Below, piece by piece: positions 20,617-49,933 of a stretch of DNA of 64,000 bases. The position numbers and the translations under genes are program-made. Below the pieces are notes generated by a model that was given only the letters and a program-made list of their open reading frames with translations, searched no databases and was not told the DNA's origin. Each line of letters begins with the position of its first letter. Position 1 is the stretch's first letter. The stretch is from Patescibacteria group bacterium (lineage in GTDB: Bacteria > Patescibacteriota > Patescibacteriia > SG8-24 > DYFX01), in the NCBI GenBank assembly GCA_030583805.1, contig CP129476.1, forward strand, positions 53,453 to 117,452, read 5' to 3'.

Positions 20617-21344
20617 GCGGAAGCGGGTCCTTCGTAGGTGATCTCGTCGTCAGACAGGCGGCGCGGGCCGCGTACGGTTTCGCGTTCTTCGATGATCTGT
20701 GCGAGCAGTCCCGGCAAGCGAGCGAGCGCAAAGATGCCGCGCATCGGTTCAGGTCCGAAACCCATGTCGAGCAAGACGGCTGCCATCGCCCCGTCGACGT
20801 TAAGCGGCAGCGGTTTTTTCGCGTCGGTATTCAGCGCCGCTTCGACGCGTTCGGCGAACGCGGCATAGGCGCCGTAGACGCCGAGCGCTTTGGCGCGCGC
20901 GCATAAGGCTTCGCTGCGGCGGTCCTTGGCCAGAAGCTTGTGCCCGTATCCCGGCAAGCGGCGGTGTTCGGCGTGTGCGCGCGAGACGACGACTGCGGGG
21001 TCTTCCTGCGCCTGCGCGAGAAAGAATCTGGCCGCGTTCTCGATCGCGCCGCCGTGCAGCGTACCTTGGGCTAGGATGCCGGCGGCCAAAGCGACGTGCG
21101 GATCGTTTCCGGAAGAGGCGACGGCGCGCGCCGTGATCGACGAAACGGGCGCCGCGCCGTGATCGATGGCGGCGACCAGCACGGATTCCAGCATGGCGGC
21201 CTGTTCTTTCGTCGGCCAGCTCTCGCGCAGCAAAAGCCACGTCACTTCCGTAAACGACCGCGTACCGATCAAGGAGATCAGGTCGTGGCCGCGAAGAAGT
21301 TCGTGTTCCTTCGTGACATGGGAGATGCGCGTTTTGATGTTCAT
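20613..21344 (-). CDS. citrate synthase-like catalytic domain protein (citryl-CoA lyase / ATP-citrate lyase C-terminal-like)
   Basis: 243 aa. GYGHKLLAKDRRSE resembles the citrate-synthase HxxY...D-R catalytic loop. Size matches CCL / ACL C-terminal domain. Start overlaps the upstream gene stop by 4 bp. Confidence 0.6.
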   Translation of the reverse strand: MNIKTRISHVTKEHELLRGHDLISLIGTRSFTEVTWLLLRESWPTKEQAAMLESVLVAAIDHGAAPVSSITARAVASSGNDPHVALAAGILAQGTLHGGAIENAARFFLAQAQEDPAVVVSRAHAEHRRLPGYGHKLLAKDRRSEALCARAKALGVYGAYAAFAERVEAALNTDAKKPLPLNVDGAMAAVLLDMGFGPEPMRGIFALARLPGLLAQIIEERETVRGPRRLSDDEITYEGPASA

Positions 21345-22237
21345 GCGTGGGTCGTCGAATGGATCAATTCTACGAGGTTTTCGAAGCGTTCGGCAACCAA
21401 GGCGCCGGCGTCTTGGAGCGCCGCCATTTTTTCCCGGGCCGACCGGCCCTTGCCGACGATCGCGCCGGCGTGTCCCACAACAGTACCCGACGGCAGCGTT
21501 TCGGCGAAGGCGCCGCCGATATGCACCGCGAGCGGCTTCGTAAAGCCGCCGTCATGCAGCAAAGAAACGATTTCCGTTTCGTAGTTCACGCCCTGTTCGG
21601 CGTAGAGCACGACGGCTTTCGTGGCCGGGTCGTTTTCCATTTCCTTCAGGACGTCGGCGTACGTCGTGCCGATCAAGAGTTCGCCGCCGACGTGGACGGC
21701 GGCGCTCTGTCCGAGGCCGGCCTGGCGCACGAGCCAGGAGAGCTCGTTGGTCATGCCGCCGGAGCGCGAGATGACGCCGATCGGTCCTGGCGCGTAGATG
21801 TCGTCGACCAAAGGGCCGCCGACGACGCCGAGGCGTCCGATGCCGGGAACGATGCAGCCGAGCGAGCCAGGGCCGATGATCCGTGCGCCGCGTTCGCGCG
21901 CCGCCGCGAGGCAGTAGGCCGCGTCCTTGAGCGGCATCTTTTCCGTCATGACGTTCACGAGCGGTACGCCCGCCTCAAGCGCTTCGAGCACGGCGGATTT
22001 TGCGGCGGACGGAGGCACATAGACCGCCGAGACGTTGATTTCCGGGAAGGACGACAGGGCGTCTCGCACGGTCCCGAAGACCGGCGCGCCGTCGGCGACG
22101 TGCCCGCCTTTGCCCGGCGTGACGCCGCACGGCACGCGCGTGCGGTACGCCCGCATGGCCGTGAGCGCGCGCAATCCCTCCTTGCCGGTGATGCCCTGGA
22201 TCAAGACCGATGTTTTTTCCGTCAGCAGGATACTCAT
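21341..22237 (-). CDS. succinyl-CoA synthetase alpha-subunit (SucD)-like CoA-binding protein
   Basis: 298 aa. MSILLTEKTSVLIQGITGKEG, GVTPGKGG, phosphohistidine loop GHAGAIV. Colinear with SucD/CcsB. Confidence 0.85.
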   Translation of the reverse strand: MSILLTEKTSVLIQGITGKEGLRALTAMRAYRTRVPCGVTPGKGGHVADGAPVFGTVRDALSSFPEINVSAVYVPPSAAKSAVLEALEAGVPLVNVMTEKMPLKDAAYCLAAARERGARIIGPGSLGCIVPGIGRLGVVGGPLVDDIYAPGPIGVISRSGGMTNELSWLVRQAGLGQSAAVHVGGELLIGTTYADVLKEMENDPATKAVVLYAEQGVNYETEIVSLLHDGGFTKPLAVHIGGAFAETLPSGTVVGHAGAIVGKGRSAREKMAALQDAGALVAERFENLVELIHSTTHA

Positions 22238-23304
22238 AGCGCCAGCGTTTTCATGCGTGTCACGGCATCATCCATCGACGTTTCCTTGCCGAAAAGTTCG
22301 ATGCGCAGGCCGTTCCGTTCCGCGCAGGCGCGCAAGAGCGCGAGGCCTTCGCGTTCGCGCGGGCCGGCACGGCGGACGACGATCGGGTAGGAAGGCTTGA
22401 GCGCGTCGAGCGCCTCGGCAATGCCTTCGAACGTTTCTTTGACGTCGGTAAAATTGGCGATGCCGCCGACGATCAGCGCGCCGCGGAGGCCCGGCTTCGA
22501 CAAGACGAGCGTCGCGAGCTCGCGGACTTTTTCTTTCGGCGGGTTTCCGGAGTACTCGGCGTAATTGGCAGCGCGGAGTCCGGCGCGTTGCATGGCGTCC
22601 ATGTTCACGAGACTCGCGCCGCCGCCCGAAAAAAGCGTGGCGATGTCGCCGGAGAGCGCGCGATACGACGCGCCGAAGGCCGAACGGTCATGCACTGCGT
22701 CGTCGAGCGCGACCTTTGCGTCGAGCGCCACGAGTGATCCGTCTGCGCGCTCGGCGACGGGATTGATTTCGATTTGCCGCGCGTCTTCTTCAAAAAATGC
22801 TTTGACAAGCTTTTCGCAAAGCTCCGGCAACGCTTTGGCGATCAGGCCCAGCTCGCCGAAAATTCCTTCGAGCGAGCGCGCCGGATCGCGCGAATCGATC
22901 GGAAAGGATCGGATATCCTCGCGCGTCTCGACGCCGGAGCCTCCGTGTCGGCCGACGAGCAGGAGCGGTCCGCGAGAAGCGGCGTCGTAGAGGCAGGAAA
23001 CGTACAGTTCGCGCGCCGCAACGATGTGCTCTTCGAGCAGCATGCGCTCTACGGGCTGGCCGTTCACGCCGCGCGCCAGCCATGCGGACACAGTCTTCTC
23101 GACGTCGGACACGGATTCGCAAAAAACCACGCCGCCGTGCGCGGCGCGGTTTCCCTCAAGGATTTGCGCTTTGACCACCCAGCAGCCGCCCAGACTCTTC
23201 GTGGCCGCTTCGATCTCCTCGATGCCTGAAATAAGGATTCCGGCAGGAATCGCGATGCCGTGTTTTGCGAGGAGCGTCTTACCTTCGTGCTCGCAGACGT
23301 TCAT
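22234..23304 (-). CDS. succinyl-CoA synthetase beta-subunit (SucC)-like ATP-grasp protein
   Basis: 356 aa. MNVCEHEGKTLLAKHGIAIP resembles the SucC N-terminus. ATP-grasp plus CoA-ligase domains. Start overlaps the SucD-like stop (4 bp). Confidence 0.85.
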   Translation of the reverse strand: MNVCEHEGKTLLAKHGIAIPAGILISGIEEIEAATKSLGGCWVVKAQILEGNRAAHGGVVFCESVSDVEKTVSAWLARGVNGQPVERMLLEEHIVAARELYVSCLYDAASRGPLLLVGRHGGSGVETREDIRSFPIDSRDPARSLEGIFGELGLIAKALPELCEKLVKAFFEEDARQIEINPVAERADGSLVALDAKVALDDAVHDRSAFGASYRALSGDIATLFSGGGASLVNMDAMQRAGLRAANYAEYSGNPPKEKVRELATLVLSKPGLRGALIVGGIANFTDVKETFEGIAEALDALKPSYPIVVRRAGPREREGLALLRACAERNGLRIELFGKETSMDDAVTRMKTLAL

Positions 23305-26745: not shown

Positions 26746-26870
26746 TCGTGTTAAGACGCTTGCACATTCCCTGACCAGCTCGAAACAAATTCTTCGCGCG
26801 ACAAACCGCATTTGGAAAACGCCCTCTCAGGGCGCGCTCCATGTGCGGTATTTTCTTTTGCGCAAACTGG

Positions 26871-26890
26871 CCAAAAACGCGTTTTTTTGG
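26871..26890. repeat. perfect 20-bp palindrome CCAAAAACGCGTTTTTTTGG (A/T-rich arms) 14-33 bp upstream of the GT4-GT-C gene start
   Basis: Seen directly in sequence. Could be an operator or a weak bidirectional hairpin. Confidence 0.5.
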
Positions 26891-26903
26891 CAGGATAGGG
26901 GAG

Positions 26904-29255
26904 ATGAACATCGCCTACGTCGCCAACGTCCGCCTGCCGACCGAGAAGGCGCACGGGCTCCAGATCATGTCCATGTGCCGCGCGTTCGCGAGGAACGGCC
27001 ACCGCGTGCGGCTGGTCGTCCCGAAGCGCAAGAACATCCACGCCGAATCGCCGTGGGCGTTTTACGGTTTCAAAGAGGAATTTGAAATCGTCGAGGTGCC
27101 GATCTACGACTTCATTTCGCACGATCGCATCCTCGGCCGCTTCGCGCTCTGGCTGAACACGCTGCAATTCTTGGTGACGGCGCGCCGCGCCGTGCACGGG
27201 TTCAATCCCGACGTCGTCTACGCGCGTGAGCCGTGGTACGGCAGTCTCGCGCCGGAAGTCCCGCACGTCTTCGAGGCGCACGACTTCACGAATCGCGTCA
27301 CGCCGTTGCACCGCCGCTGGTGGAAGCGCGCCGCGAGAATCGTCGCCGTTACGGCGGGGCTCAAAAACGTTTTTGTCGCGCACGGCGTGCCGGAAGAAAA
27401 AATCGTCGTCGCGCACGACGGCGTCGACGAAGCCACCTTCGCCGTGCGCGAGACCAAAGCGGAAGCCCGGGCGGAACTCGGCCTGCCATCCGACGCGGTT
27501 CTTGCCATCTACACCGGACATCTCTACGCCTATAAAGGAGCGGATGACGTGCTGGATGCCGCCGCTTCGGTGCCGCCGCACGTCCGAATTCTTTTCGTTG
27601 GCGGCCGCCCTGACGACCTCGCGCGGCTCAAGGCGCGTGCAGCCGCGCTCCATGCGTCAAATGTCATTTTCGCGGGACGCGTGCCGCACGCCATGATTCC
27701 GGTGTATCTCCGCGCGGCTGACATCGCCGTGCTGCCGACGCGCGGAACCGACCGGCATGCCGCGGAATTTTTGTCGCCGCTCAAGCTCTTCGAATACCTG
27801 GCTGCCGGCAAGGCGCTCGTCGCGACCGATCTGCCTTCGGCGCGCGAAGTGCTGACGGATGCAACAGCCGTCTTCGTCCCGCCGTCCGATCCGACGGCGC
27901 TGGCGAAAGCCCTGAGTGATCTTGCAGCTTCGCCGGAACGCGTCGCCTCGTTAGAGCGCGAGAGCTTGCGACTCGCGGCGAATCATACGTGGCTGCGCCG
28001 CGTGGAAACCGTGCTGGCAGATTTGAAGCCGTCCGATGCCGTGCAACCTTGGTACGTTCGTTATCGCGTCGAGATCCTCTGCGCCGTTCTCGCGCTGGCT
28101 ATCCGCACGCTGTACGTTTCCTTTTTCCCGCAGTTCAAGTTTGAAGGCGGCGACGGGCCGATTTACATCGGCTTATCCGACTACGTGCGCGGCCTTGTCG
28201 ACGAGGTGCCGAAGAAAGACCTGCGCTTCTTCCCGATTGTCTACCCGTACTTCTTGGCGATGATCAGAAGCGTCTTCGGCAACGATCTCTTGTGGGTGCG
28301 TCTTGCCCAGGCTGCGCTTTCAGCCGCGACCGTCTTCGTCGGCGCGCTCGCCGCGCGTCTCTGGCTCGGCCGCGCGACCGGACTGCTCGCGGGCGTCCTG
28401 CTCGCCGTGTACGCGCCGCTCGTGCTCGAGAGCGGCATTATCTACACCGAAACGACGTATACGTTCCTGCTGACTTCGGCCGTCGTGCTCGGGGTGTTCG
28501 CGGTGCAGCGCGCGCGGCTCGCGTACGCCTTCGCGGCCGGCATCGGTTTCATGTTCGCGGGCCTCACGCGCGAGCTCGGTTTCTACCAAGCGCTACTCTT
28601 CGGAATCTTCGCGCTCGCGTGGCGTCGTTCCTGGAAAATGGCGGCGCTGCTCATGATCCCGACCTTGCTCGCGCTCGGAGGATTGTCGATTCGGAACGCC
28701 GCGATCGCGGAAAAGCACGCGCTTACGTCCGCTCCGCTCGTCTCCAAAAATTATGAAAAGGATTTGTTCGAGCCGACCCTGGTTGAGTTCCTCTTTTCGC
28801 CGTCGCGCTGGCATCTGTACGTCGAGGGCTCGTATCTCTATTGGCGCTTCCCGTATCGCCTGAGCGATTTGGGAACGGGGGAGCCGGTCGATGGCAAGAC
28901 GAATCCGGACGGCGACGTGGTCTATCACTTGAGCACGAAGCCGGGTTCCTTCATGGCGATTCAGCCAGCGCATCAGATTGCCGGAAAATGGTTCCTGGTT
29001 TTGACGCATTGGTTCCTACTGGTTCTCGCGGCCTACGGCCTTTGGAGAGGCCGTCTTCCGAAAGAGGCGAAGATCGGTTTCCTGATCGCTATCCTGTTCG
29101 CGTGGGGCACGATCATGCTCGGCGGCTTGCACCGCGTGCAGGGATTCGAGGGTTTTGAACCGCTCGCGCGCTACCGGTTCCCGACGGAAGTGCTGATACT
29201 TCTCTTGGCCGTCTCCGGCGCGCAGGCGCTCGGCGTACGCAAGAAGAAAACGTGA
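26904..29255 (+). CDS. GT4 glycosyltransferase fused to a C-terminal polytopic GT-C-like (ArnT/PMT_2-like) membrane domain
   Basis: 784 aa from ATG 26904 (AGGGGAG RBS). N-terminal ~390 aa GT4 (TRGTDRHAAEFLSPLKLFEYLAAGKALVATD). C-terminal ~390 aa with about 10 TM segments and GT-C-like loops. Confidence 0.75.
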   Translation: MNIAYVANVRLPTEKAHGLQIMSMCRAFARNGHRVRLVVPKRKNIHAESPWAFYGFKEEFEIVEVPIYDFISHDRILGRFALWLNTLQFLVTARRAVHGFNPDVVYAREPWYGSLAPEVPHVFEAHDFTNRVTPLHRRWWKRAARIVAVTAGLKNVFVAHGVPEEKIVVAHDGVDEATFAVRETKAEARAELGLPSDAVLAIYTGHLYAYKGADDVLDAAASVPPHVRILFVGGRPDDLARLKARAAALHASNVIFAGRVPHAMIPVYLRAADIAVLPTRGTDRHAAEFLSPLKLFEYLAAGKALVATDLPSAREVLTDATAVFVPPSDPTALAKALSDLAASPERVASLERESLRLAANHTWLRRVETVLADLKPSDAVQPWYVRYRVEILCAVLALAIRTLYVSFFPQFKFEGGDGPIYIGLSDYVRGLVDEVPKKDLRFFPIVYPYFLAMIRSVFGNDLLWVRLAQAALSAATVFVGALAARLWLGRATGLLAGVLLAVYAPLVLESGIIYTETTYTFLLTSAVVLGVFAVQRARLAYAFAAGIGFMFAGLTRELGFYQALLFGIFALAWRRSWKMAALLMIPTLLALGGLSIRNAAIAEKHALTSAPLVSKNYEKDLFEPTLVEFLFSPSRWHLYVEGSYLYWRFPYRLSDLGTGEPVDGKTNPDGDVVYHLSTKPGSFMAIQPAHQIAGKWFLVLTHWFLLVLAAYGLWRGRLPKEAKIGFLIAILFAWGTIMLGGLHRVQGFEGFEPLARYRFPTEVLILLLAVSGAQALGVRKKKT

Positions 29256-30767: not shown

Positions 30768-32084
30768 TCAACGGCCTTTTCGCTTCAGCACGCTGTACAC
30801 CGTCTTCAGAATGATCGCCGCGTCGAGCGCGAGCGAACGGTATTTCAAGTAGTAGAGATCGTGGCGCAGTTTCACGACATGGTCTTCGCGCGAAGCGGCA
30901 TACGGGGCCGAAACTTGCGCCCAGCCCGTGAGTCCCGGACGCACGAGGTGCCGCACCGGAAAGAGGGGAATTGTTTTTGCGAGCTCGTCCTCGATTTCCG
31001 GACGTTCCGGACGCGGACCGACGAAACTCATCTCGCCGCGCAGGATGTTCCAAATTTGGGGCAGCTCGTCGAGGCGCGTCGCGCGCAGCAGCCGGCCGAT
31101 GTGCGTGACGCGCGGGTCGCCCTCTTGCGCGAAGGCGGCGCCGTGCTTCTCGGCATCGACGTGCATCGTGCGGAACTTCAACATCATGAACGGCCGGCCG
31201 CCTTTGCCGACGCGCGTCTGTCGGTAGAGAACCGGGCCGCGGTCTTCAATCCAAATCGCGAAAGCGATGACGGGCGAAAGCAAGAGCGTCGGAATCGCGA
31301 ACAGGACGCCACCCAAGACGTCGCCCAAGTGCTTAACGTGCTCATAGATTGCCGAGTCCTGATGCGCGAGGTTATCGAGAATCCAGCGCTCGTCGAGCGC
31401 AGACTCCGGAACCGAATGGCGGATCTTTTCGTAAAAACTCGGAAAGTCGACGATCGTGACGGACTGGAAAAACGTCCGATACAAGCGCGCCGTCAGATCG
31501 GCGCTGCCTTGCAGCGTGCGCGCGACGACGATCATGTCGCAGGCGGGGAGGCGCGTCTCCGTCATTTCATGCACGACGCCGACGGGCGTGTATCCGAGGT
31601 TCGGATTGGTTTCGAGGACGGCTCGGAGCGCGCGCGCTTCTTCTCCGCCGCCCAGGAACAAGACGCGCAGCCGGAAGCGCGGCAGGGAGAACAAGTGCAT
31701 GGTGCAGATGCGCCAGCCGATAAAGAGCGCGGCGAAGAGGACGAGCACGATGACCAGGTTCGTTTTCGGCGTGATGCCGAACCCGGGCGTGAAGTAGAAG
31801 ACCGCCATGGAAACCAGGAACGCGGCGAAGATCGCTTCCGTCGCGCGTCCGAGCAGCTCGATGCGGCTGCGCAGCGCGCCGAAATCATACAGGCCGACGA
31901 TGTAGAAAATCGCGATCCACAAAAGGAAGACGGCGGTGAAGGGCCGCGCGTGTCCTTGCCACTGCACCGGGAGCGCGGCGTCGCCGTAACGCACAAGCAG
32001 CGTCAGGAGCAACGCCGAATAGGCCGCAAGCAAATCGCCCGCGGCAAGAATAGCCAATTTCAATCGGCGATGATCGCCGTTCAT
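30768..32084 (-). CDS. polyprenyl-phosphate sugar phosphotransferase (WbaP / bacterial sugar transferase family), initiating enzyme
   Basis: 438 aa. N-terminal TM segments. C-terminal Bac_transf domain (PVLYRQTRVGKGGRPFMMLKFRTM...DELPQIWNILRGEMSFVGPRPERPE). Confidence 0.9.
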   Translation of the reverse strand: MNGDHRRLKLAILAAGDLLAAYSALLLTLLVRYGDAALPVQWQGHARPFTAVFLLWIAIFYIVGLYDFGALRSRIELLGRATEAIFAAFLVSMAVFYFTPGFGITPKTNLVIVLVLFAALFIGWRICTMHLFSLPRFRLRVLFLGGGEEARALRAVLETNPNLGYTPVGVVHEMTETRLPACDMIVVARTLQGSADLTARLYRTFFQSVTIVDFPSFYEKIRHSVPESALDERWILDNLAHQDSAIYEHVKHLGDVLGGVLFAIPTLLLSPVIAFAIWIEDRGPVLYRQTRVGKGGRPFMMLKFRTMHVDAEKHGAAFAQEGDPRVTHIGRLLRATRLDELPQIWNILRGEMSFVGPRPERPEIEDELAKTIPLFPVRHLVRPGLTGWAQVSAPYAASREDHVVKLRHDLYYLKYRSLALDAAIILKTVYSVLKRKGR

Positions 32085-32158
32085 AACGAGTCAAGAATAG
32101 CTTTTTCAGGCTTGAAAAGCAAGGGTGTTCAGGGTACGCTTGCCTGAGCATTCGCCGT

Positions 32159-33250
32159 ATGAAGATCGCCTTTCTCACGACAACGCTGGACGAGACGGTC
32201 GGCTGGGGCCGCTACGCCGCCGGTTTTTTGGCGGAAGCGCGTCGCCGCAACGGCATTGAAAACGTCATCGCGCCGAATCCGGCGCGCTTGCGTTCAACCG
32301 AAATCCGATGGAAGCAGCCGTTCCTGGCGCTGCTCGACGCGTTCGTCCTTTGGCGTGAAGTCAAAGATTGCGACGTACTTCACGCGGCCATCGAGCCGGC
32401 CGCGCCGCTCGCGTATTTTTTGTCGCTGCTCACGGGCAAACCGTTCGTCGTTTCGGTGTGCGGAACGTTCGCCGATCTCGATTCATATTCCAAGCCGGTG
32501 CGCTGGCTGTACCGCCGCGCGTTCCGTTCCGCCGACCGCATGGCGATTTTGAGCCGCTACACGCTCAGGGTTTTCGAGCGCGGCGTGCAAGACGCGAAAA
32601 CGACGATCGTGTACGGCGGCTTCGTGCCTCCGGCACACGCGCCGAAGAAAACGGGGATCAGCGCCGAACGCAGGATTTTGGCCGTCGGCGCCGTGAAGCC
32701 GCGCAAGGGATTCCACACGCTGCTTGAAGCGCTGGGCCGATTGAAACGCGAAGGGTTTGCCTTCAAAGCCGATTGCGTCGGTCCGAAAGACGCTTCGCGC
32801 TACACCGAACAGCTCGACAAACGCCTGGTCGAACTCGGCCTTGAAGACCATGTGACGTTTCACGGACGCGTTTCCGAAGACGCGCTCAACCGGTTTTATG
32901 CCGATGCCGACCTGTTCGTGCTTCCGTCCGAGCACAGCGGCACCGCGTTCGAAGGCCTCGGCCTCGTCTATCTTGAAGCAATGGCCTACGGCGTGCCGGT
33001 CATCGGTTGTCTCGACTCGGGCGCCGAAGACGTCATTCGCGACGGCGAGAACGGGCGGCTCGTTCCGCCCGGAAACGTCGAAACGCTCGCCGAAACCATC
33101 CGGCAGATGCTGGTCGATGAAGCGCAATGGAAAAAAATGTCCGAGGCTGCGCCCGGAAGCATCGACCGTTTCCGCTGGGAATCCGTCGGCGCCGACATGA
33201 ACGACGCCTACAAGGCGGCGATCAAGGAACGGGCATGTGAGAGTGCATAA
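32159..33250 (+). CDS. glycosyltransferase family 4
   Basis: 363 aa. GT4 motif (PSEHSGTAFEGLGLVYLEAMAYGVPVIGCLDSGAEDVIRDGENGRLV). Confidence 0.85.
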   Translation: MKIAFLTTTLDETVGWGRYAAGFLAEARRRNGIENVIAPNPARLRSTEIRWKQPFLALLDAFVLWREVKDCDVLHAAIEPAAPLAYFLSLLTGKPFVVSVCGTFADLDSYSKPVRWLYRRAFRSADRMAILSRYTLRVFERGVQDAKTTIVYGGFVPPAHAPKKTGISAERRILAVGAVKPRKGFHTLLEALGRLKREGFAFKADCVGPKDASRYTEQLDKRLVELGLEDHVTFHGRVSEDALNRFYADADLFVLPSEHSGTAFEGLGLVYLEAMAYGVPVIGCLDSGAEDVIRDGENGRLVPPGNVETLAETIRQMLVDEAQWKKMSEAAPGSIDRFRWESVGADMNDAYKAAIKERACESA

Positions 33251-33324
33251 CTATACCAATGTCGGATTTTGATTAGATGTGCTAACCTTAAGCTGCATCT
33301 TTTAAGATAGGTATATACAATACT

Positions 33325-35913
33325 ATGCGACACAAGCGCTCGCGCGTGTTTCATCGTTTTATTAACGGCTTTTGCGGATTCGTCATAGTGTTTGCCGGAT
33401 CCTTTTTCTTTAGTGCGTCTGCGGATGCTGGGAGTATCTCCTTCGACGCCAAGAGCCAAGGCAGCGCCACCAGCGCTACGTCCGTCACGGTGTCCCACAC
33501 GACCGGCTCCGGCAGCAACCGCGTGATGTTCGTCCAGCTCTACATGACCCCGCACACCGGACTCACGCCGGCCGACTGCACCTACAATGGCGATGCGCTC
33601 ACGAATCTGGTCGCCCTGCCCTACAACGGAGGCGGCAACGCCAACGTTTACGTCTATCAGCTCGTGGCTCCCGATTCCGGCACGCACGACATCGTCTGCG
33701 ACGGGCCTGACAGCACCGACTACTATCTGACGGCCGCGACGTACGCAGGAGCGGCTCAGTCTCTCGCGACCGGCAGCGCCATCGCTTCGTATTCCAGCAA
33801 CAGCAGCTTCACCACCAAGACGCTTACGCCGACCGCGCTCACGGCCGGCAGCTGGATCTTCGGCGGCGGCGCGACCGAAGACAGCACCTTCACGAACGGA
33901 ACCAACTGCACGCTGCTCTACAGCGGCGCCCACACGGCGTGCGACAGCAACGGACCGGTCGGATCCGGATCCCAGAACCAGATATTCAACGCGAACGCCT
34001 CGACGCGTTTCCAGATCGTCGCCGTGGCGTTTGCGGAGGCCGAAACGCCGACCTCCATCTCCTTCGACGCCAAGAGCCAAGGCAGCGCCACCAGCGCTAC
34101 GTCCGTCACGGTGTCCCACACGACCGGCTCCGGCAGCAACCGCGTGATGTTCGTCCAGCTCTACATGACCCCGCACACCGGACTCACGCCGGCCGACTGC
34201 ACCTACAATGGCGATGCGCTCACGAATCTGGTCGCCCTGCCCTACAACGGAGGCGGCAACGCCAACGTTTACGTCTATCAGCTCGTGGCTCCCGATTCCG
34301 GCACGCACGACATCGTCTGCGACGGGCCTGACAGCACCGACTACTATCTGACGGCCGCGACGTACGCAGGAGCGGCTCAGTCTCTCGCGACCGGCAGCGC
34401 CATCGCTTCGTATTCCAGCAACAGCAGCTTCACCACCAAGACGCTTACGCCGACCGCGCTCACGGCCGGCAGCTGGATCTTCGGCGGCGGCGCGACCGAA
34501 GACAGCACCTTCACGAACGGAACCAACTGCACGCTGCTCTACAGCGGCGCCCACACGGCGTGCGACAGCAACGGACCGGTCGGATCCGGATCCCAGAACC
34601 AGATATTCAACGCGAACGCCTCGACGCGTTTCCAGATCGTCGCCGTGGCGTTTGCGGAGGCCGAAACGCCGACCTCCATCTCCTTCGACGCCAAGAGCCA
34701 AGGCAGCGCCACCAGCGCTACGTCCGTCACGGTGTCCCACACGACCGGCTCCGGCAGCAACCGCGTGATGTTCGTCCAGCTCTACATGACCCCGCACACC
34801 GGACTCACGCCGGCCGACTGCACCTACAATGGCGATGCGCTCACGAATCTGGTCGCCCTGCCCTACAACGGAGGCGGCAACGCCAACATTTACGTCTATC
34901 AGCTCGTGGCTCCCGATTCCGGCACGCACGACATCGTCTGCGACGGGCCTGACAGCACCGACTACTATCTGACGGCCGCGACGTACGCAGGAGCGGCTCA
35001 GTCTCTCGCGACCGGCAGCGCCATCGCTTCGTATTCCAGCAACAGCAGCTTCACCACCAAGACGCTTACGCCGACCGCGCTCACGGCCGGCAGCTGGATC
35101 TTCGGCGGCGGCGCGACCGAAGACAGCACCTTCACGAACGGAACCAACTGCACGCTGCTCTACAGCGGCGCCCACACGGCGTGCGACAGCAACGGACCGG
35201 TCGGATCCGGATCCCAGAACCAGATATTCAACGCGAACGCCTCGACGCGTTTCCAGATCGTCGCCGTGGCGTTTGCGGAGGCCGAAACGCCGACCTCCAT
35301 CTCCTTCGACGCCAAGAGCCAAGGCAGCGCCACCAGCGCTACGTCCGTCACGGTGTCCCACACGACCGGCTCCGGCAGCAACCGCGTGATGTTCGTCCAG
35401 CTCTACATGACCCCGCACACCGGACTCACGCCGGCCGACTGCACCTACAATGGCGATGCGCTCACGAATCTGGTCGCCCTGCCCTACAACGGAGGCGGCA
35501 ACGCCAACGTTTACGTCTATCAGCTCGTGGCTCCCGATTCCGGCACGCACGACATCGTCTGCGACGGGCCTGACAGCACCGACTACTATCTGACGGCCGC
35601 GACGTACGCAGGAGCGGCTCAGTCTCTCGCGACCGGCAGCGCCATCGCTTCGTATTCCAGCAACAGCAGCTTCACCACCAAGACGCTTACGCCGACCGCG
35701 CTCACGGCCGGCAGCTGGATCTTCGGCGGCGGCGCGACCGAAGACAGCACCTTCACGAACGGAACCAACTGCACGCTGCTCTACAGCGGCGCCCACACGG
35801 CGTGCGACAGCAACGGACCGGTCGGGTCCGGATCCCAGAACCAGATATTCAACGCGAACGCCTCGACGCGTTTCCAGATCGTCGCCGTGGCGTTTGCGGA
35901 GGTGGGTGACTAA
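33325..35913 (+). CDS. secreted repeat protein: signal peptide + four near-identical 207-aa tandem domains (Ser/Thr/Gly-rich, 4 Cys each)
   Basis: 862 aa. N-terminal signal peptide (FVIVFAGSFFFSASADA). The unit SISFDAKSQGSATSATSVTVSHTTGSGSNRVMFVQLY...AFAEAETPT repeats 4 times. The long antisense ORF (R-rich) was judged a shadow. Confidence 0.75.
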   Translation: MRHKRSRVFHRFINGFCGFVIVFAGSFFFSASADAGSISFDAKSQGSATSATSVTVSHTTGSGSNRVMFVQLYMTPHTGLTPADCTYNGDALTNLVALPYNGGGNANVYVYQLVAPDSGTHDIVCDGPDSTDYYLTAATYAGAAQSLATGSAIASYSSNSSFTTKTLTPTALTAGSWIFGGGATEDSTFTNGTNCTLLYSGAHTACDSNGPVGSGSQNQIFNANASTRFQIVAVAFAEAETPTSISFDAKSQGSATSATSVTVSHTTGSGSNRVMFVQLYMTPHTGLTPADCTYNGDALTNLVALPYNGGGNANVYVYQLVAPDSGTHDIVCDGPDSTDYYLTAATYAGAAQSLATGSAIASYSSNSSFTTKTLTPTALTAGSWIFGGGATEDSTFTNGTNCTLLYSGAHTACDSNGPVGSGSQNQIFNANASTRFQIVAVAFAEAETPTSISFDAKSQGSATSATSVTVSHTTGSGSNRVMFVQLYMTPHTGLTPADCTYNGDALTNLVALPYNGGGNANIYVYQLVAPDSGTHDIVCDGPDSTDYYLTAATYAGAAQSLATGSAIASYSSNSSFTTKTLTPTALTAGSWIFGGGATEDSTFTNGTNCTLLYSGAHTACDSNGPVGSGSQNQIFNANASTRFQIVAVAFAEAETPTSISFDAKSQGSATSATSVTVSHTTGSGSNRVMFVQLYMTPHTGLTPADCTYNGDALTNLVALPYNGGGNANVYVYQLVAPDSGTHDIVCDGPDSTDYYLTAATYAGAAQSLATGSAIASYSSNSSFTTKTLTPTALTAGSWIFGGGATEDSTFTNGTNCTLLYSGAHTACDSNGPVGSGSQNQIFNANASTRFQIVAVAFAEVGD
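33436..35903. repeat. tandem direct repeat, 621-bp unit x ~4, >99% identical
   Basis: Identical six-frame sub-ORFs recur at 33918/34539/35160 and 33939/34560/35181, offset by exactly 621 bp. Differences seen are GTT/ATT in copy 3 and GGA/GGG in copy 4. Confidence 0.9.
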
Positions 35914-35927
35914 GCTATTGAAAAATA

Positions 35928-35957
35928 CCGGAGCGGTGCAGACCGCCCCGGTTTTTT
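35928..35957 (+). terminator. intrinsic terminator after repeat-protein gene
   Basis: Hairpin CCGGAGCGGT-GCAG-ACCGCCCCGG followed by TTTTTT. Confidence 0.7.
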
Positions 35958-35973
35958 CATTGCCGAAGCGGAA

Positions 35974-37275
35974 GTGTTGACCTACACTGTGGGCATGCTC
36001 AACGCGTTCAAGGGCGCCGCCACGCGCCTTCTTCTCTGGTCGCAAAAATATACGAAAACCGACATGCGGTACGTCGCGCATGGCGGCTTTTGGATGTCCT
36101 TGAACCTCGTCCTGTCGTCCGCCGTCTCCGTCGCGCTCGCAATCGTCTTTGCCAACCTCTTGCCGAAAGAGGTCTACGGTTACTACAAATACGTTTTGTC
36201 CGTCGGCAGTTTGTTCGGTTTCCTGACGTTCACCGGCATGAACGCTGCGGTTTCGCAGGCGGTCGCGCGCGGTCAGGACGGCGCGTTTCCGTACGCCGTC
36301 CGCATCCAGCTGAAGTGGAACCTGCTGCTCGCCGTCGTTTTATCAGGTGTCGGTATCTACTACCTCTTGAACGGCAGCCAGAAGCTCGGCATTCCACTCC
36401 TGTTCCTCGCCATTGGTTCGCCCTTGGCCGCGGCCTACACGACCTACGGCGCCTATCTCGGAGGCAAGAAAGACTTCAAGACGGCTTCGCAGTATTCGAC
36501 GGCGGCAGTCGTGTTGTACGCGCTCACCATGTGCGCTGCCGTGCTCATTACGAAAGACGTGCGATGGCTCGCCGCGACGTATGCGATCAGCTCGGCTGTG
36601 ATCGCCTTCCTCTTCCATCGTCTCACCGTACGCAAATATCAGCCGCAGGGTCTGGAAGAGGAGGAGCGCAAGAAGATGCTGACGCTCGGCAAGCACTTGT
36701 CGCTGACGAACGTCCTCGGTTCGCTGGCGCAGTACGTCGACAGCATCGTCGTCTTCAAATTCGGCGACGCGACGGAGCTGGCCATTTACGCTTTCGCCAA
36801 CGTGATTCCCGACCGGTTGCGCGGTTTCATGAAGCGCGCGCTCGGCATCGTGGCCCCGAAGATCGCGGACAAGACGCCGAGGGAGGCATACGTATCGCTC
36901 GGCCTTCGCATTGCGCAAGGACTTATCGTCGGCGCCGCGCTTGCCGCGGTCTACTGGCTGCTCTCGCCGTTCGTCTTCAAGTATATTTTTCCGCAGTACG
37001 TGGTCTCAACCTTCTACTCGCAGCTGATCGCGCTCGGGTTCCTTCTCGTCATTCCGGCAACGTACAGTTCGCAAGTGATGCAGGCTCAGCATTTGTACAC
37101 GCCGCTGTACGTCGGCACGACGATCGGAAACCTGTTCCGCATTTTCGCGATCATTGCCGGCGGTTTCTTCGGTGGCGTCATCGGCGTCATCGTCGCTCGC
37201 CTTGCGGCCAACGTGTTCGCGACCGCGCTGACGCTTCTGCTCATTCGTCGTGACTTGCGAAAACTCACTGCGTAA
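35974..37275 (+). CDS. Wzx-like polysaccharide flippase (MOP superfamily, polysaccharide biosynthesis protein)
   Basis: About 12-14 TM segments. PF01943-like organisation. Start is TTG 35974 or ATG 35992. Confidence 0.8.
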   Translation: MLTYTVGMLNAFKGAATRLLLWSQKYTKTDMRYVAHGGFWMSLNLVLSSAVSVALAIVFANLLPKEVYGYYKYVLSVGSLFGFLTFTGMNAAVSQAVARGQDGAFPYAVRIQLKWNLLLAVVLSGVGIYYLLNGSQKLGIPLLFLAIGSPLAAAYTTYGAYLGGKKDFKTASQYSTAAVVLYALTMCAAVLITKDVRWLAATYAISSAVIAFLFHRLTVRKYQPQGLEEEERKKMLTLGKHLSLTNVLGSLAQYVDSIVVFKFGDATELAIYAFANVIPDRLRGFMKRALGIVAPKIADKTPREAYVSLGLRIAQGLIVGAALAAVYWLLSPFVFKYIFPQYVVSTFYSQLIALGFLLVIPATYSSQVMQAQHLYTPLYVGTTIGNLFRIFAIIAGGFFGGVIGVIVARLAANVFATALTLLLIRRDLRKLTA

Positions 37276-37276
37276 T

Positions 37277-38251
37277 ATGGCTGCACCCGCGCATCTTGCC
37301 GCCGCTTTCGGCGAGCGCCTGAAGGAAAACGAACCGCTCGCGAAGCACGTCCACATCCGCATTGGCGGACCGGCGGATTTGTATCTTGAAGCGAAAAGTT
37401 CCGACGAGATCGTCCAGGCCGTCGAAGCCGCGATCGCCGAAGGACTCCCGTTCGCGATTTTTGGCGGAGGTTCGAACACATTGCCGAGCGACGACGGTTT
37501 TCGCGGTCTCGTCATCCAAGCGGCGAATCGGAATTGGAGCATTGACGGTACGCGCGTGATCGCCGAAGCGGGCGTGCCGTCAGGTTTCCTGGCGCGCAAA
37601 ACCGCCGAGGCCGGGCTCACCGGCCTTGAATGGGCCGTTTCGCTGCCCGGCACGATCGGCGGCGCCGTACGCGGCAATGCCGGCTGCTTCGGCGGGGAAA
37701 CCAAAGATGCTTTTGTTTCGGCGGAAACGCTGCTCGTGACCGACGGGCGCGCGTTTCGGGCGATCTGCACCAAGAACGAGTGCGGTTTCGGCTATCGCGA
37801 GTCTCGTTTTAAGCGTAGCCGGGACGTGATTCTCTCGGCGGAGTTTGCGCTCGCGGTCGCGCCGAAAGAGACGTGCTTGGCGAGGCTCGAAGAAGTGCTT
37901 TCAAAGCGCAAAGCCGATCAGCCGAGCGATGCGCCGTCGGCGGGCTGCATGTTCAAGAACTTCGACTTTAAGGATGAGGCCGTATTGGCCAAGTTGAAGG
38001 AGCGCGTCGAGGTTCCCGAGGCGTTTCTGCGCGCCAAACGCCTTCCGGCCGGCTGGCTGATCGAGCAGGCCGACATGAAAGGCAAAGCCATCGGAGCCGC
38101 CAAAGTGTCGGAAAAACACGGAAATTTCCTGCTGAATCTCGGAGGCGCGACAGCCTCGGACGTACTGCAGCTGATTTCGCTCATCAAGATGCGCATTCGC
38201 AACGAGTTCGGCATCCAGCTTGAAGAAGAGGTGCAGTTGCTCGGATTCTGA
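37277..38251 (+). CDS. murB: UDP-N-acetylenolpyruvoylglucosamine reductase
   Basis: FAD-binding domain (IRIGGPADLY, FGGGSNTL) and MurB C-terminal domain. Start at ATG 37277 (MAAPAHL). Confidence 0.9.
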   Translation: MAAPAHLAAAFGERLKENEPLAKHVHIRIGGPADLYLEAKSSDEIVQAVEAAIAEGLPFAIFGGGSNTLPSDDGFRGLVIQAANRNWSIDGTRVIAEAGVPSGFLARKTAEAGLTGLEWAVSLPGTIGGAVRGNAGCFGGETKDAFVSAETLLVTDGRAFRAICTKNECGFGYRESRFKRSRDVILSAEFALAVAPKETCLARLEEVLSKRKADQPSDAPSAGCMFKNFDFKDEAVLAKLKERVEVPEAFLRAKRLPAGWLIEQADMKGKAIGAAKVSEKHGNFLLNLGGATASDVLQLISLIKMRIRNEFGIQLEEEVQLLGF

Positions 38252-38274
38252 ACTTCCGTTACGCTGCCACCACT

Positions 38275-39285
38275 ATGCAGAAAACCGCCATTATCACCGG
38301 CATCCTCGGCCAGGACGGCCCCTATCTCGCCAAGCTGCTCTTGGAAAAAGACTATCGCGTTTTCGGACTCATGCAGCGCCACTCGGCTCCGAATTTCGAG
38401 AACACCGATTGGCTGGGCGTGACCGACAAGATCGAGTTCGTGACCGGCGACATGACGGATGAGGGTTCGCTTCTGCATCTCGTGCGCTCGATCCGTCCCG
38501 CCGAAGTCTACAACCTGGCGGCGCAGTCGTTCGTCGGCGCGTCGTGGGATCTCGCCCGCGTCACGACGGAGGTTAACAGCCTTGGCGTGCTGCATCTTTT
38601 GAACGCGCTCAAGTACCACCAGCCGACCGGAAAGTTTTACCAGGCGGCGACGAGCGAGATGTTCGGCAACAATCACGATAACGGCGTGCAAACGGAAACG
38701 ACGTCCTTCCGTCCGCGCAGCCCGTACGGCATCTCGAAAGTCTACGCCTACTGGATGACCGTCAACTTCCGCGAGAGCTTCGGCATGCATACGTCGAACG
38801 GTATCCTCTTCAATCACGAATCGCCGATCCGCGGAAAGGAATTCGTGACCCGCAAAATCAGCGATGCGGTCGCCAAGATCAAGCTCGGCCTTCAAGACAA
38901 GATCATGCTCGGCAACCTCGACGCCAAGCGCGACTGGGGTTTCGCCGGCGATTACGTCGAGGCGATGTGGATGATGCTCCAGCAGCCCGAAGGCGGCGAT
39001 TATCTCGTTGCGACGGGGGAGCCGCACTCGATCCGCGAATTCCTCGACCTCGCTTTCAAGCATGTCGGCATCGACGACTGGAGCGATCTGGTCGGCATCG
39101 ATCCGCGCTTCAAGCGCCCGGCGGAAATCCATGCTCTCAAAGGCTCGCCGCAGAAGGCTACCGAAACATTGGGTTGGAAGCCGAAGGTCTCCTTTGAAGA
39201 ACTCGTTGCCATGATGGTCGACGCCGATCTCGAACGACAGCGCGTCAAGGCTGAAACGCCGGCGTTCTCGGTCAAAGCCGTCTGA
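38275..39285 (+). CDS. gmd: GDP-mannose 4,6-dehydratase
   Basis: 336 aa. ITGILGQDGPYLAKLLLEKDY, SEMFG, YGISKVYAYW. Classic Gmd. Confidence 0.9.
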   Translation: MQKTAIITGILGQDGPYLAKLLLEKDYRVFGLMQRHSAPNFENTDWLGVTDKIEFVTGDMTDEGSLLHLVRSIRPAEVYNLAAQSFVGASWDLARVTTEVNSLGVLHLLNALKYHQPTGKFYQAATSEMFGNNHDNGVQTETTSFRPRSPYGISKVYAYWMTVNFRESFGMHTSNGILFNHESPIRGKEFVTRKISDAVAKIKLGLQDKIMLGNLDAKRDWGFAGDYVEAMWMMLQQPEGGDYLVATGEPHSIREFLDLAFKHVGIDDWSDLVGIDPRFKRPAEIHALKGSPQKATETLGWKPKVSFEELVAMMVDADLERQRVKAETPAFSVKAV

Positions 39286-39290
39286 CCCCG

Positions 39291-39331
39291 GAAAGAGGCC
39301 GCCCTTGCATGGGACGGCTCTTTCCTTTAAA
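39291..39331 (+). terminator. possible intrinsic terminator after gmd
   Basis: Imperfect ~10-bp stem GAAAGAGGCCG / CGGCTCTTTC followed by a CTTTCCTTTAAA T-rich run. Confidence 0.4.
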
Positions 39332-39359
39332 GTAGAGCCACTAAAATAGGCTGTTCTCT

Positions 39360-39671
39360 ATGACCATTGATCGCATCAAAGCCACGGGAATCGAGCTTAC
39401 CGACGCTATTCGGGACGCTGTCGAGAAGGACCTCGCCGCGCTCGCGCCGATCACGGCTCGCTTCGGCGACGGCACCTCGGTCGACGTTGAAGTCGGCAAG
39501 ACGACGAATCATCACCACAAGGGCGAGATTTTCCGCGCCGAGATGAACCTGCATATTCCCGGCAAGACGATCCGCGTCGAAGAAGTCGCCGAGGATCTCT
39601 ACGCCGCCATCAAAGAAGCGGCGCGCACGCTCAGCCGCGAAGTGGTCAAAGAAAAGGAACGCCACGACTGA
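39360..39671 (+). CDS. hpf: ribosome hibernation promoting factor / RaiA family (short HPF)
   Basis: 103 aa. [25 protein letters not shown]...[24 protein letters not shown]. Confidence 0.85.
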
Positions 39672-39676
39672 TTTTC

Positions 39677-42403
<2,727 letters not shown>

Positions 42404-47863: not shown

Positions 47864-49933
47864 ATGACTACTCGTCGCGGCCGATCGTTTTTTTATTACG
47901 TGTCCGTTCCGTTCGTCTGGCTCGGTAAAGCGCTGAGCCGGATCGTGAAACCGACGTCCCGCGGCAAAGTACGCTGGGCTGTTTTGACTGTCTTGATTCT
48001 GGCCGGACTCTCCGGCTTCTTGGCGTATCCGCAGGCCTGGGATCGCGGCGCCGACGCTTGGAATACCAAGGTTGTCGACGGCATGAATCTGCCTGGCGGT
48101 TTCAAGATCCCGCATTTCGCCAACGTTCCGTACCGCCTCGGCCTTGATCTTCAAGGCGGCACGCACCTCGTCTACGAAGCGGATACTTCCGATATCGTTC
48201 CGAGCGAGCGCGACGCGGCAATGGAAGGCGTGCGCGACGTCATCGAGCGCCGCGTCAACGCGTTCGGCGTTGCCGAGCCGATCATCCAAACCAACAAGGC
48301 GGACGATCGCTGGCGTATTATCGTTGAGCTCGCGGGCGTTCGCGATGTCAGCGAGGCTATCCGCATGATCGGTGAAACGCCTATTCTTGAATTCAAAGAG
48401 GAAAACCCCGTTTCGGAAATTCCGCTCACGCCTGAGCAACAGAAGGAGCTCGAGACGCGCAACGCCGACCTGAAGAAACAGGCAAACGACACGTTGCGGT
48501 CGGCGCTCATCAACCCGAACGACGAAAAACTTGCCTGGGAAAACCTCGGTTCCGTCGGCGAAAGCCAGTACCCGGAACTTTGGAAGTGGGCCGATACGCA
48601 CCGTGGCGCCAAGCTTGCCGGGACGCTGGTTGAGGATCCGGAATACTGGAACGTGCTGCGCGTGAATGCCCGCGACGATGCCGAAAAGGAAATCAAGGCG
48701 AGCCATATTCTGATTTGCTGGGAAGATGCCCAGGGTTGCGGAGAGCCGCTCACGAAGGAGCAGGCTTTGGAGCAGATCACCGCGCTGCGCGGCGAAGTCA
48801 CGGCGCAGAACTTTGCGGAGAAAGCCAAGGCGAATTCAACGGACGGTTCCGTCAGCGTAAATGACGGCGATCTTGGCTGGTTCGGCGAAGGAATGATGGT
48901 CAAGGAATTCCAGGACGCCGCCTTCGCGCTCAAGAACGGGGAGATTTCTCAGCCTGTCGAATCTCCGTTCGGCTACCACCTGATCTACAAAACGGGGGAG
49001 CGCCCGCTCGTGCGCTACGATCTCGACCGCATTGCGTTCAAAAAAGTGACCGCTGCCGACGTCGCGCCGCAGGCCGATCCGTGGAAGAACACGGGCTTGT
49101 CCGGCAAGCATGTGCAGCGCGCGCAGGTTGAATTCGATCAGACGGTCAACCGCCCGCAGGTGCTTCTTACGTTCAACGAAGAAGGTAAAACGCTTTTTGC
49201 CGAACTCACCAAGCGCAGCGTCGGAAAACTGATCGCGATCTATCTCGACGGCCAGGCGATCTCCATTCCGCGCGTGCAGCAAGAAATCGCGGACGGCAAT
49301 GCCGTCATCAGCGGCGACTTTGATGTGAAGGAAGCGAAGCTCTTGTCGCAGCGTCTCAATGCCGGCGCATTGCCGGTACCGATCACGCTGCTCTCCCAGC
49401 AGACGATCGGCGCATCGCTCGGCCAAGACTCGTTGGCAAAGAGCCTGAACGCCGGCTTGATCGGCTTCCTGATCGTCGTTGTCTTCATGACCTTGTACTA
49501 CCGCCTCCCGGGCTTGATTGCCTCGTTGGCGCTGCTCATGTACACCGGTTTCGTGCTCGCGATCTTCAAGCTCTTGGGCATCACGCTGACCCTCTCGGGC
49601 GTTGCGGGCGTCATCTTGTCGATCGGCATGGCCGTGGACGCCAACATCCTGATCTTCGAGCGCATGAAGGAAGAGTTGAAGAATGCCCGCCCGCTTGATT
49701 CGGCGATCGCGGAAGGCTTCAAGCGCGCCTGGACCTCGATCTACGACTCGAATATCTCCTCGCTTATCACCTGCGCCATCTTGTACACCTTCACGTCGAG
49801 TTCGGTGCGTGGCTTCGCGGTGACCTTGGCGATCGGTATCGTCGTCTCGATGTTCTCTGCCATTACGGTGACGCGCACGCTGCTCCGCTTGGTCGCGCCG
49901 TGGACTAGTAACTCTCGCTGGCTCTTCAAGTAA
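47864..49933 (+). CDS. secD: protein translocase subunit SecD with an inserted parvulin-type PPIase domain in the periplasmic P1 region
   Basis: 689 aa. SecD motifs (GLDLQGGTHLVYEAD, GETPILEFKEE, C-terminal 6-TM bundle). Between them sits a PpiC rotamase signature (KASHILI...GDLGWFGEGMMVKEFQDAAFALKNGEISQPVESPFGYHLIY). Confidence 0.9.
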   Translation: MTTRRGRSFFYYVSVPFVWLGKALSRIVKPTSRGKVRWAVLTVLILAGLSGFLAYPQAWDRGADAWNTKVVDGMNLPGGFKIPHFANVPYRLGLDLQGGTHLVYEADTSDIVPSERDAAMEGVRDVIERRVNAFGVAEPIIQTNKADDRWRIIVELAGVRDVSEAIRMIGETPILEFKEENPVSEIPLTPEQQKELETRNADLKKQANDTLRSALINPNDEKLAWENLGSVGESQYPELWKWADTHRGAKLAGTLVEDPEYWNVLRVNARDDAEKEIKASHILICWEDAQGCGEPLTKEQALEQITALRGEVTAQNFAEKAKANSTDGSVSVNDGDLGWFGEGMMVKEFQDAAFALKNGEISQPVESPFGYHLIYKTGERPLVRYDLDRIAFKKVTAADVAPQADPWKNTGLSGKHVQRAQVEFDQTVNRPQVLLTFNEEGKTLFAELTKRSVGKLIAIYLDGQAISIPRVQQEIADGNAVISGDFDVKEAKLLSQRLNAGALPVPITLLSQQTIGASLGQDSLAKSLNAGLIGFLIVVVFMTLYYRLPGLIASLALLMYTGFVLAIFKLLGITLTLSGVAGVILSIGMAVDANILIFERMKEELKNARPLDSAIAEGFKRAWTSIYDSNISSLITCAILYTFTSSSVRGFAVTLAIGIVVSMFSAITVTRTLLRLVAPWTSNSRWLFK

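Follow-up and report, generated by a model that had tools for sequence, protein, structure and literature searches.

Why should an envelope-glycan locus carry a gene that encodes the same domain four times and, apart from an export signal, nothing else? The question is raised by a stretch of 64,000 nucleotides from a Patescibacteria group bacterium (contig CP129476.1 of assembly GCA_030583805.1, positions 53,453 to 117,452; hereafter the window, whose coordinates are used throughout). The gene lies at 33325-35913 on the plus strand and its 862-aa product is identical in sequence to WKZ29190.1 (locus tag QY323_00505, 'hypothetical protein'), deposited from a metagenome-assembled genome (MAG) in which the contig measures 1,167,441 bp. 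The answer that we favour, and hold with moderate confidence, is that the product would be a Sec-exported, recently amplified, multivalent surface binding protein, made of modules shared with phages and encoded in a lineage-specific cassette.

The anatomy of the gene was established by base-by-base comparison and self-blastn. A unit of 621 bp occurs four times in register, at 621-bp spacing, within the open reading frame (ORF), and the repeated tract extends from 33436 to 35902, equivalent to 3.97 units. Copies 1 (33436-34056) and 2 (34057-34677) are identical. Copy 3 (34678-35298) differs by a single private substitution, 34888 G>A (GTC>ATC, Val>Ile), and copy 4 (35299-35902) by another, 35826 A>G (GGA>GGG, synonymous); this last copy is shorter by the final 5 codons of the unit, which belong to the linker, and the protein ends ...AFAEVGD at the stop codon. 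The whole array accordingly holds 2 differences in about 2.47 kb and its units share 99.84% DNA identity, in agreement with a previous annotation made from the letters alone (the sequence-only reading), which had described four in-frame 621-bp repeats of more than 99% identity following a signal peptide and the same two nucleotide differences. As the unit comprises 207 codons all junctions are in frame, and they fall on domain boundaries, each unit being one domain plus an AEAETPT linker (domain of copy 1, E = 1e-71 against the family profile described below). The array is the sole long repeat within the window; Tandem Repeats Finder returned nothing there, its longest period, 500, being below 621. 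A diversity-generating retroelement was considered and rejected: the window contains neither a long inverted repeat nor a second repeat family, the array shows only two singleton differences, and no Pfam match of reverse transcriptase type was obtained among the about 50 window genes scanned.

The near-identity of the copies supports either a very recent expansion or an ongoing homogenisation, as had been suggested before. The genes flanking the array differ by 12-16% between lineages, as opposed to 2 sites in about 2.5 kb of array, which argues that the array was formed long after the split from the nearest relative, or is actively homogenised. The term 'phase variation', applied earlier to possible changes in copy number, is not appropriate: with a unit of 207 codons, gain or loss of copies keeps the frame and alters length and valency, and no on/off switching results.

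The coding strand is equally well established. The GC content of the plus ORF at the three codon positions is 0.51/0.56/0.84, like that of the neighbouring genes, whereas a 957-aa ORF on the minus strand gives the mirrored values 0.81/0.55/0.51, and homologues were found for the plus frame only. Codon-position GC and homology together identify the plus frame as the coding one, which settles a doubt left by the sequence-only reading, namely that the minus frame might be the expressed one. By the same two tests the minus-strand ORF and three 130-aa ORFs in the +3 frame were discarded as shadow ORFs. The N-terminus, MRHKRSRVFHRFINGFCGFVIVFAGSFFFSASADA|GS, presents a basic n-region, a hydrophobic core (10-mer Kyte-Doolittle hydropathy of 2.48) and an A-x-A site. 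These traits, identified by inspection and hydropathy and not by a dedicated predictor, suggest a Sec-type signal peptide of residues 1-35 (33325-33429, plus strand), predicted to be cleaved after ...SASADA, and are consistent with the secretion proposed earlier. The mature protein is the four repeats and nothing else: 827 aa, 84 kDa, with a pI of about 4.35, a content of about 50% Thr+Ser+Ala+Gly (26% Ser+Thr) and about 1% each of Lys and Arg.

The structure of one unit and its homologues were the next elements of the answer, both having been recommended as checks in the sequence-only reading. The AlphaFold2 model of a single unit is a confidently predicted all-beta fold, a beta-sandwich, with a predicted local distance difference test score (pLDDT) of 93.3 and a predicted template-modelling score (pTM) of 0.90. 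In the model of two units the pLDDT is 87.6 and the pTM 0.61; hence the domains are predicted with confidence while their mutual orientation is not fixed, the modules being joined by linkers of 7-8 residues. No sequence match to the unit was found in Pfam or NCBIfam, nor in the PDB with the unit or its profile; the single unit and 16 relatives gave nothing relevant in Pfam, and a Foldseek search of the unit model against the PDB found no relative. When the whole protein is scanned, Pfam families such as PF24025 (Ig_DR_A0283-like), PF00137 (ATP-synt_C) and others do appear, and were rejected since no single stretch of the protein passes: the 30.2 bits for PF24025 (cut-off 27.1) and the 27.8 bits for PF00137 (cut-off 24) are sums of four identical sub-threshold matches. 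Near-identical repeats constitute in this respect an annotation trap, summed sub-threshold matches exceeding the whole-protein gathering scores.

A word-indexed search provided the 16 relatives, with 30-37% identity to the unit and mostly single-domain proteins of 214-266 aa. Their alignment displays the motifs T-x-S-x-T-x-G-SGSNR, TYNG..MT, AP-x-(S/T)-G, SYTG..Q and DSNGP, and the residues T23, S26, G27, R30, Y51, P80, G83, Q109 and G179 are invariant. No Asp, Glu, His or Cys is conserved in the alignment of the unit and its relatives. The description of the unit as a 4-Cys domain stands as far as the count is concerned, four cysteines per unit being present; they are specific to the window protein and are not conserved in the family, so that they do not characterize the domain. 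A jelly-roll enzyme, glycosidase or lyase, was also contemplated; a hydrolase active site is unlikely with no conserved acidic residue, His or Cys, no strong fold match was obtained, and the enzyme is considered unlikely.

Assessed by an exhaustive profile search, the unit is a member of a very large unnamed family, with 26,818 representative clusters (at 50% identity) at E<=1e-3 and 17,463 at E<=1e-10. Among its members are 'minor tail proteins' of actinophages, fusions with type IV pilins, single domains that are secreted, and adhesin-like proteins of giant size. Three architectures are found in cellular members. The first is a signal peptide followed by one domain. In the second, a prepilin N-terminus (N_methyl, PF07963) precedes one or two domains in proteins of about 360-618 aa, several of them independent metagenome proteins (P0003, P0048 and P0278-P0283 in our numbering); one such fusion gene (contig L010, 5001-6083) adjoins a gene for a 1,301-aa LamG_3/DUF2341 repeat protein. 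In the third, the domain lies inside multi-domain proteins of surface type of 1,000-5,700 aa. Among the 157 top-scoring members, a ranking that favours multi-domain proteins as scores are additive, 92 begin with the domain, 32 with a hydrophobic leader and 33 with other extensions, and at least two domains are present in 84.

The identity between adjacent domains in the family is continuous, from about 25% to over 90%. Two further arrays that are repetitive at the DNA level were located on metagenomic contigs, independent of the window: P0018 (L007:89-1804), in which units of about 600 bp share 96% identity, and P0044 (L008:8001-10058), in which units of 675 bp share 98-99%. Of the arrays seen, that of the window is the most uniform. 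Near-identical tandem arrays of the domain appear to have arisen independently, as a recurrent trait of the family. The start of the P0018 gene, at base 89 of the contig, suggests that the assembly broke at the repeats.

Such contigs raise the question of whether the four copies, or their near-identity, could be an artefact of assembly, the true locus having a single copy or far more than four. Short reads cannot resolve 621-bp repeats that are more than 99.8% identical, and the two other arrays of the family lie at or near contig ends, P0018 at the very start of its own. However, copies 3 and 4 carry private substitutions, the ends of the array are clean, in frame and phased with the domain, the single 1,167,441-bp contig suggests a long-read assembly, and members with several tandem copies of the domain are common in the family. 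We regard an artefact as most improbable.

The link of the module with phages was found by several routes. The unit matches PHROG 553 with E = 2e-7 over profile positions 116-271 of 512, a match at the level of the domain only; 9 of 17 relatives match the same group and 5 of 17 match PHROG 2106, both annotated 'minor tail protein'. Foldseek against BFVD gave full-length matches (TMq 0.70-0.85, probability 1.0) to 'minor tail proteins' of Mycobacterium and Gordonia phages and to proteins of uncultured Caudovirales. By hhalign, the family alignment matches the C-terminal domain of Mycobacterium phage Tweety gp21 (ABQ86090.1) with 92% probability and E = 6e-7, whereas a hidden Markov model of 17 sequences did not detect this protein. 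The best sequence relatives, P0001 and P0007, sit in phage-like contigs together with an SU10 adaptor, an HNH endonuclease, phiTE_241_C and an M15 peptidase; PHROG scans of the genes around the relatives found in phage context did not reveal their virion module. Neither the unit nor P0022 gave a tblastn match among the INPHARED phages.

It follows from these profile and fold comparisons that the window protein shares a homologous beta-sandwich domain with actinophage minor tail proteins (PHROG 553 and 2106; Mycobacterium phages Tweety, through gp21, PP, Hawkeye and Gaia), in which the domain is exposed on a surface structure, often in a C-terminal or distal position. The function of the phage domain is an annotated one. 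By context the protein is not a phage tail protein. The minor tail proteins are devoid of signal peptide and are encoded in virion gene modules, whereas the window protein is cellular, has a predicted signal peptide and is encoded in a glycan locus; its gene is not in a virion or tail module, the neighbours being glycan-synthesis and housekeeping genes (GT4, wzx, murB, secA), and no phage, integrase or transposase gene is present among the about 50 window genes scanned. Moreover, the phage members Tweety gp21, P0001 and P0007 have one copy of the domain and the window protein has four. Baseplate accessory 'minor tail' proteins of mycobacteriophages contain beta domains resembling carbohydrate-binding modules (CBM) and bind cell-wall glycans on arrays (PMC13252515). 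For the window module these CBM-like domains are background and offer no more than an analogy.

Where, then, does the gene reside, and how stable is its position? The surrounding 40 kb form an envelope-glycan locus interleaved with housekeeping genes, containing many GT4 glycosyltransferases, a Wzy_C protein, a DegT aminotransferase, a formyltransferase, murB, a GDP-mannose-dehydratase-like gene, HPF, secA and secDF. As stated in the sequence-only reading, the repeat gene is placed between a GT4 gene (32159-33250, plus strand), itself next to an initiating phosphoglycosyl transferase of the Bac_transf type (30768-32084, minus strand), and the gene of a Wzx-type oligosaccharide flippase (35974-37275, plus strand), which is followed by murB. 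Homologues of the flippase led to three related contigs, with 90% (L004, protein P0158), 77% (L005) and 52% (L006) amino acid identity. In blastn with the first of them, homology is confined to 31288-33237, at 83.6% nucleotide identity, and 35949-41051, at 87.8%: it ends at 33237, within the conserved GT4 flank, and resumes at about 35949, at the border of the conserved flippase flank. The 2.7 kb in between are an AT-rich leader, the repeat gene and a terminator. In L004 the corresponding slot (L004:1967-7694) spans 5.7 kb with a GT4, an AsnB-like enzyme, two methyltransferases and an epimerase; in L006 (L006:1946-3484) it holds a methyltransferase and a 155-aa ORF; and in L005 (L005:1-119) the end of another gene, terminating ...FTIDSTL. 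The content of the slot, 33238-35948 in the window, is wholly different in each of the four related lineages, and the three related contigs are devoid of the domain over their whole length. Since the flanking genes are kept at 84-88% identity in relatives while the contents of the slot differ, the repeat gene, with its own leader and terminator, is best described as a lineage-specific cassette in a hypervariable slot. Neither this slot nor the large phage-shared family had been recognised in the sequence-only reading.

The borders of the cassette that had been noticed earlier were found again. At the left, the upstream spacer (33251-33324, plus strand) has 32% GC in a window of 61% GC and presumably contains the promoter and ribosome-binding site; a simple scan detected no sigma-70 consensus site in it. 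At the right edge, an intrinsic terminator hairpin followed by a T-run (35927-35952, plus strand) has a free energy (dG) of -26 kcal/mol and z = -4.4. The arrangement recalls the variable central regions of capsule and O-antigen loci, where conserved flanks (here at 84-88% nucleotide identity) likewise surround a swapped segment. It differs from them in that the slot holds a gene for a repeat protein instead of sugar-modifying enzymes, and in that wzx belongs to the conserved flank and not to the variable part. The variable slot of a glycan locus can hence accommodate a protein gene in place of such enzymes.

A cassette that brings its own leader and terminator, and that sits in the variable slot of a locus making a likely phage receptor, might also be a phage-derived element (a moron or prophage remnant) engaged in phage-host conflict, for instance by masking the glycan receptor of its own cell surface to block adsorption. 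The sharing of the domain with phage minor tail proteins, the phage-like contigs of the best relatives and a codon usage at the extreme of the local range would agree with this origin. Nevertheless, the roughly 50 window genes scanned include no phage, integrase or transposase gene, no close phage homologue was obtained (neither by tblastn in INPHARED nor as a relative in IMG/VR), GC and GC at third codon positions (GC3) match the host genome, with 0.646 and 0.84 respectively in the gene, and many members of the family are plainly cellular, with signal peptides or pilin N-termini. A phage-derived element in this role is, in our judgement, very unlikely.

A different proposal arises from the composition of the protein and the enzymes around it. 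S-layer glycoprotein genes are placed beside S-layer glycosylation (slg) gene clusters in some Firmicutes and in Geobacillus, Paenibacillus and Tannerella, and here an acidic, Thr/Ser-rich protein of exported type is likewise encoded beside a pathway with Bac_transf, glycosyltransferases, flippase and Wzy_C-type protein. The product could in that case be a surface or S-layer-like glycoprotein, the O-glycosylated acceptor substrate of the locus, in which the repeats are scaffold and not binder. The content of the locus would fit such a pathway: the Bac_transf enzyme, many GT4, Wzx, a 736-aa Wzy_C protein and a GT4-PMT_2 fusion. The mature protein, with 26% Ser+Thr, a pI of 4.35 and TPT linkers, would likewise fit the role of acceptor. 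The Wzy_C domain occurs not only in O-antigen ligases or polymerases, the type to which the 736-aa protein (12263-14473, plus strand) corresponds, but also in PglL-type protein O-oligosaccharyltransferases, and glycosylation of proteins by the locus is conceivable. The fusion protein (26841-29255, plus strand; 804 aa) joins a GT4 domain to a PMT_2 membrane domain of the GT-C, protein-mannosyltransferase-like class, and could use a protein or a lipid-linked acceptor.

The evidence for an S-layer role is weakened by the means of anchoring and by the distribution of the gene. Neither SLH nor another known wall-binding domain was found in Pfam or NCBIfam, there is no LPxT[GAS]/LPXTG sortase motif in the protein, and the C-terminus, ...VAVAFAEVGD, does not form a hydrophobic anchor (maximum 15-mer hydropathy in the last 60 aa of 1.13); the earlier suggestion of an S-layer-like protein is not sustained by these searches. 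The gene is missing from the slot in the three closest relatives, with no domain copy on their contigs, and as a core S-layer protein is usually conserved, this absence counts against the S-layer reading. Glycosylation of the protein is pure inference. We consider a scaffold-type acceptor fairly unlikely as the answer; it is, in any case, compatible with a binding function and not exclusive of it.

Taking into account that homologous modules are carried by: (i) tails or virions of phages; (ii) pilin-like proteins, and (iii) giant adhesin-like proteins, the most likely role of the module is that of a binding unit displayed at the surface, and we propose the following model for the window protein. 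After removal of the signal peptide, four copies of one beta-sandwich module would be arranged as beads on a string. Each module would be exposed at the surface as a binding unit, probably for a glycan, and the four identical copies would constitute a multivalent binder, gaining avidity on or around the Patescibacteria cell. The lectin-like or adhesin character suggested in the sequence-only reading would fit the homology to phage tail modules and the pilin fusions. The array would have originated by recent tandem amplification of the 621-bp unit of domain plus linker, or its uniformity would be maintained by unequal recombination or gene conversion. Identical units of 621 bp are good substrates for unequal recombination, and were more of them to be gained or lost in frame, the protein would change in length and valency. 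A possible target of the modules is the glycan encoded by the organism's own locus, which would also solve the missing anchor; alternatively, the target may be a glycan of a host cell, or the protein itself may be glycosylated.

Folded tandem domains with nearly identical DNA are a known design in the Periscope proteins, which include Rib/alpha C, SasG/Aap, Sgo_0707 SHIRT, Esp and CdrA (Whelan et al. 2021, PMC8201768). The screen used in that work took repeats of more than 50 aa that were at least 80% identical, and its authors proposed that high identity of repeat DNA permits intragenic recombination and in-frame changes of repeat number (PMC8201768). The window protein is likewise of exported type and made of tandem folded domains with very high DNA identity, its four 207-aa units at 99.84% lying within the limits of the screen. 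Several differences are to be considered. Periscope proteins have an N-terminal ligand-binding head and a C-terminal wall anchor, neither of which was found in the window protein, whose mature part is the array alone. SHIRT repeats have 84-90 residues (PMC8201768), whereas the window domain has about 207 and belongs to a different, unnamed family. A rigid rod, as in the rod-like stalks of Periscope proteins, finds no clear support in the predicted models, with a pTM of 0.90 for the single unit and 0.61 for the pair. Finally, a repeat number that varies between strains or close relatives belongs to the Periscope concept, whereas for the window protein variation in length is conjecture. The window protein plausibly works by analogy like a Periscope protein, and we do not file it as a member.

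Several observations weigh against the binding model. No anchor was found among those looked for (LPXTG, SLH, lipobox, C-terminal hydrophobic segment), and the protein could simply be released. Tweety gp21 lacks the SGSNR loop that is conserved in the family alignment; no member of the family with an experimental characterisation was found, and 'minor tail protein' is an annotation only. Variable length, which had been put forward from the repeats, found no counterpart: no allele with a different copy number was encountered in the genome, metagenome and viral collections searched. No close homologue of the whole protein exists in 185,579 species-representative genomes, the JGI metagenomes or IMG/VR, and its sequence cluster has one member only. 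The codon-usage distance of the gene, 0.157-0.165, is only marginally atypical, the 31 neighbouring genes having a median of 0.109 and reaching 0.156 at most; as the gene is just at the edge of the local range, a foreign origin of the cassette would be no more than a possibility. Export, surface location, binding function, ligand, copy change driven by recombination and the link with the locus glycan are all inferred.

With these points weighed, a multivalent surface binding protein is still the answer that we favour. How ultrasmall Patescibacteria recognize and bind their hosts is described as largely unknown in a passage of a preprint (bioRxiv 10.1101/2024.11.25.624915), and a multivalent protein that is exported and composed of phage-tail-type modules would be a concrete candidate for cell-cell or cell-glycan recognition in such a bacterium. 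Surface proteins with near-identical tandem domains are already known; what the window case adds is the uncharacterised domain family and a candidate for recognition that can be tested. The Periscope paper does not mention Patescibacteria (PMC8201768), and the window case would extend 'Periscope-like' near-identical domain arrays to this group. Furthermore, a family of about 27,000 clusters with no entry in Pfam, NCBIfam or the PDB connects minor tail proteins of phages with pilin fusions and giant surface proteins; to name it and solve its structure would hence improve the annotation of many phage and metagenome proteins.

A bolder form of the model can be formulated, to which we would grant a small chance of being right. 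A Patescibacteria episymbiont would have adopted a phage-tail-type receptor-binding module as its own adhesin, displaying four identical copies encoded on a swappable cassette of its envelope-glycan locus, tunable in valency and length, either to recognise and attach to surface glycans of the host cell or to hide its own glycan from phages. On this view phages, pili and ultrasmall bacteria would share a general 'display-and-bind' module, represented by the family of about 27,000 clusters.

Other genes of the window merit description. Three adjacent genes on the minus strand (20613-23304) resemble an ATP-citrate lyase or citryl-CoA synthetase/lyase set, with a C-terminal Citrate_synt half (243 aa), a CoA_binding+Succ_CoA_lig protein (298 aa) and an ATP-grasp_2+Citrate_bind protein (356 aa). 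The set lies within the glycan locus, adjoining the DegT aminotransferase and the formyltransferase, and its role may be the acylation of an amino sugar and not central metabolism. On the plus strand, the SecD gene (47864-49933), followed by that of SecF, encodes a PPIC-type peptidyl-prolyl isomerase (rotamase) domain inserted at about residues 266-376, in the periplasmic region. Further downstream (52259-54100, plus strand) lies a gene for a TrwB/TraG-like type IV coupling protein of 613 aa, with an unannotated 450-aa ORF upstream of it.

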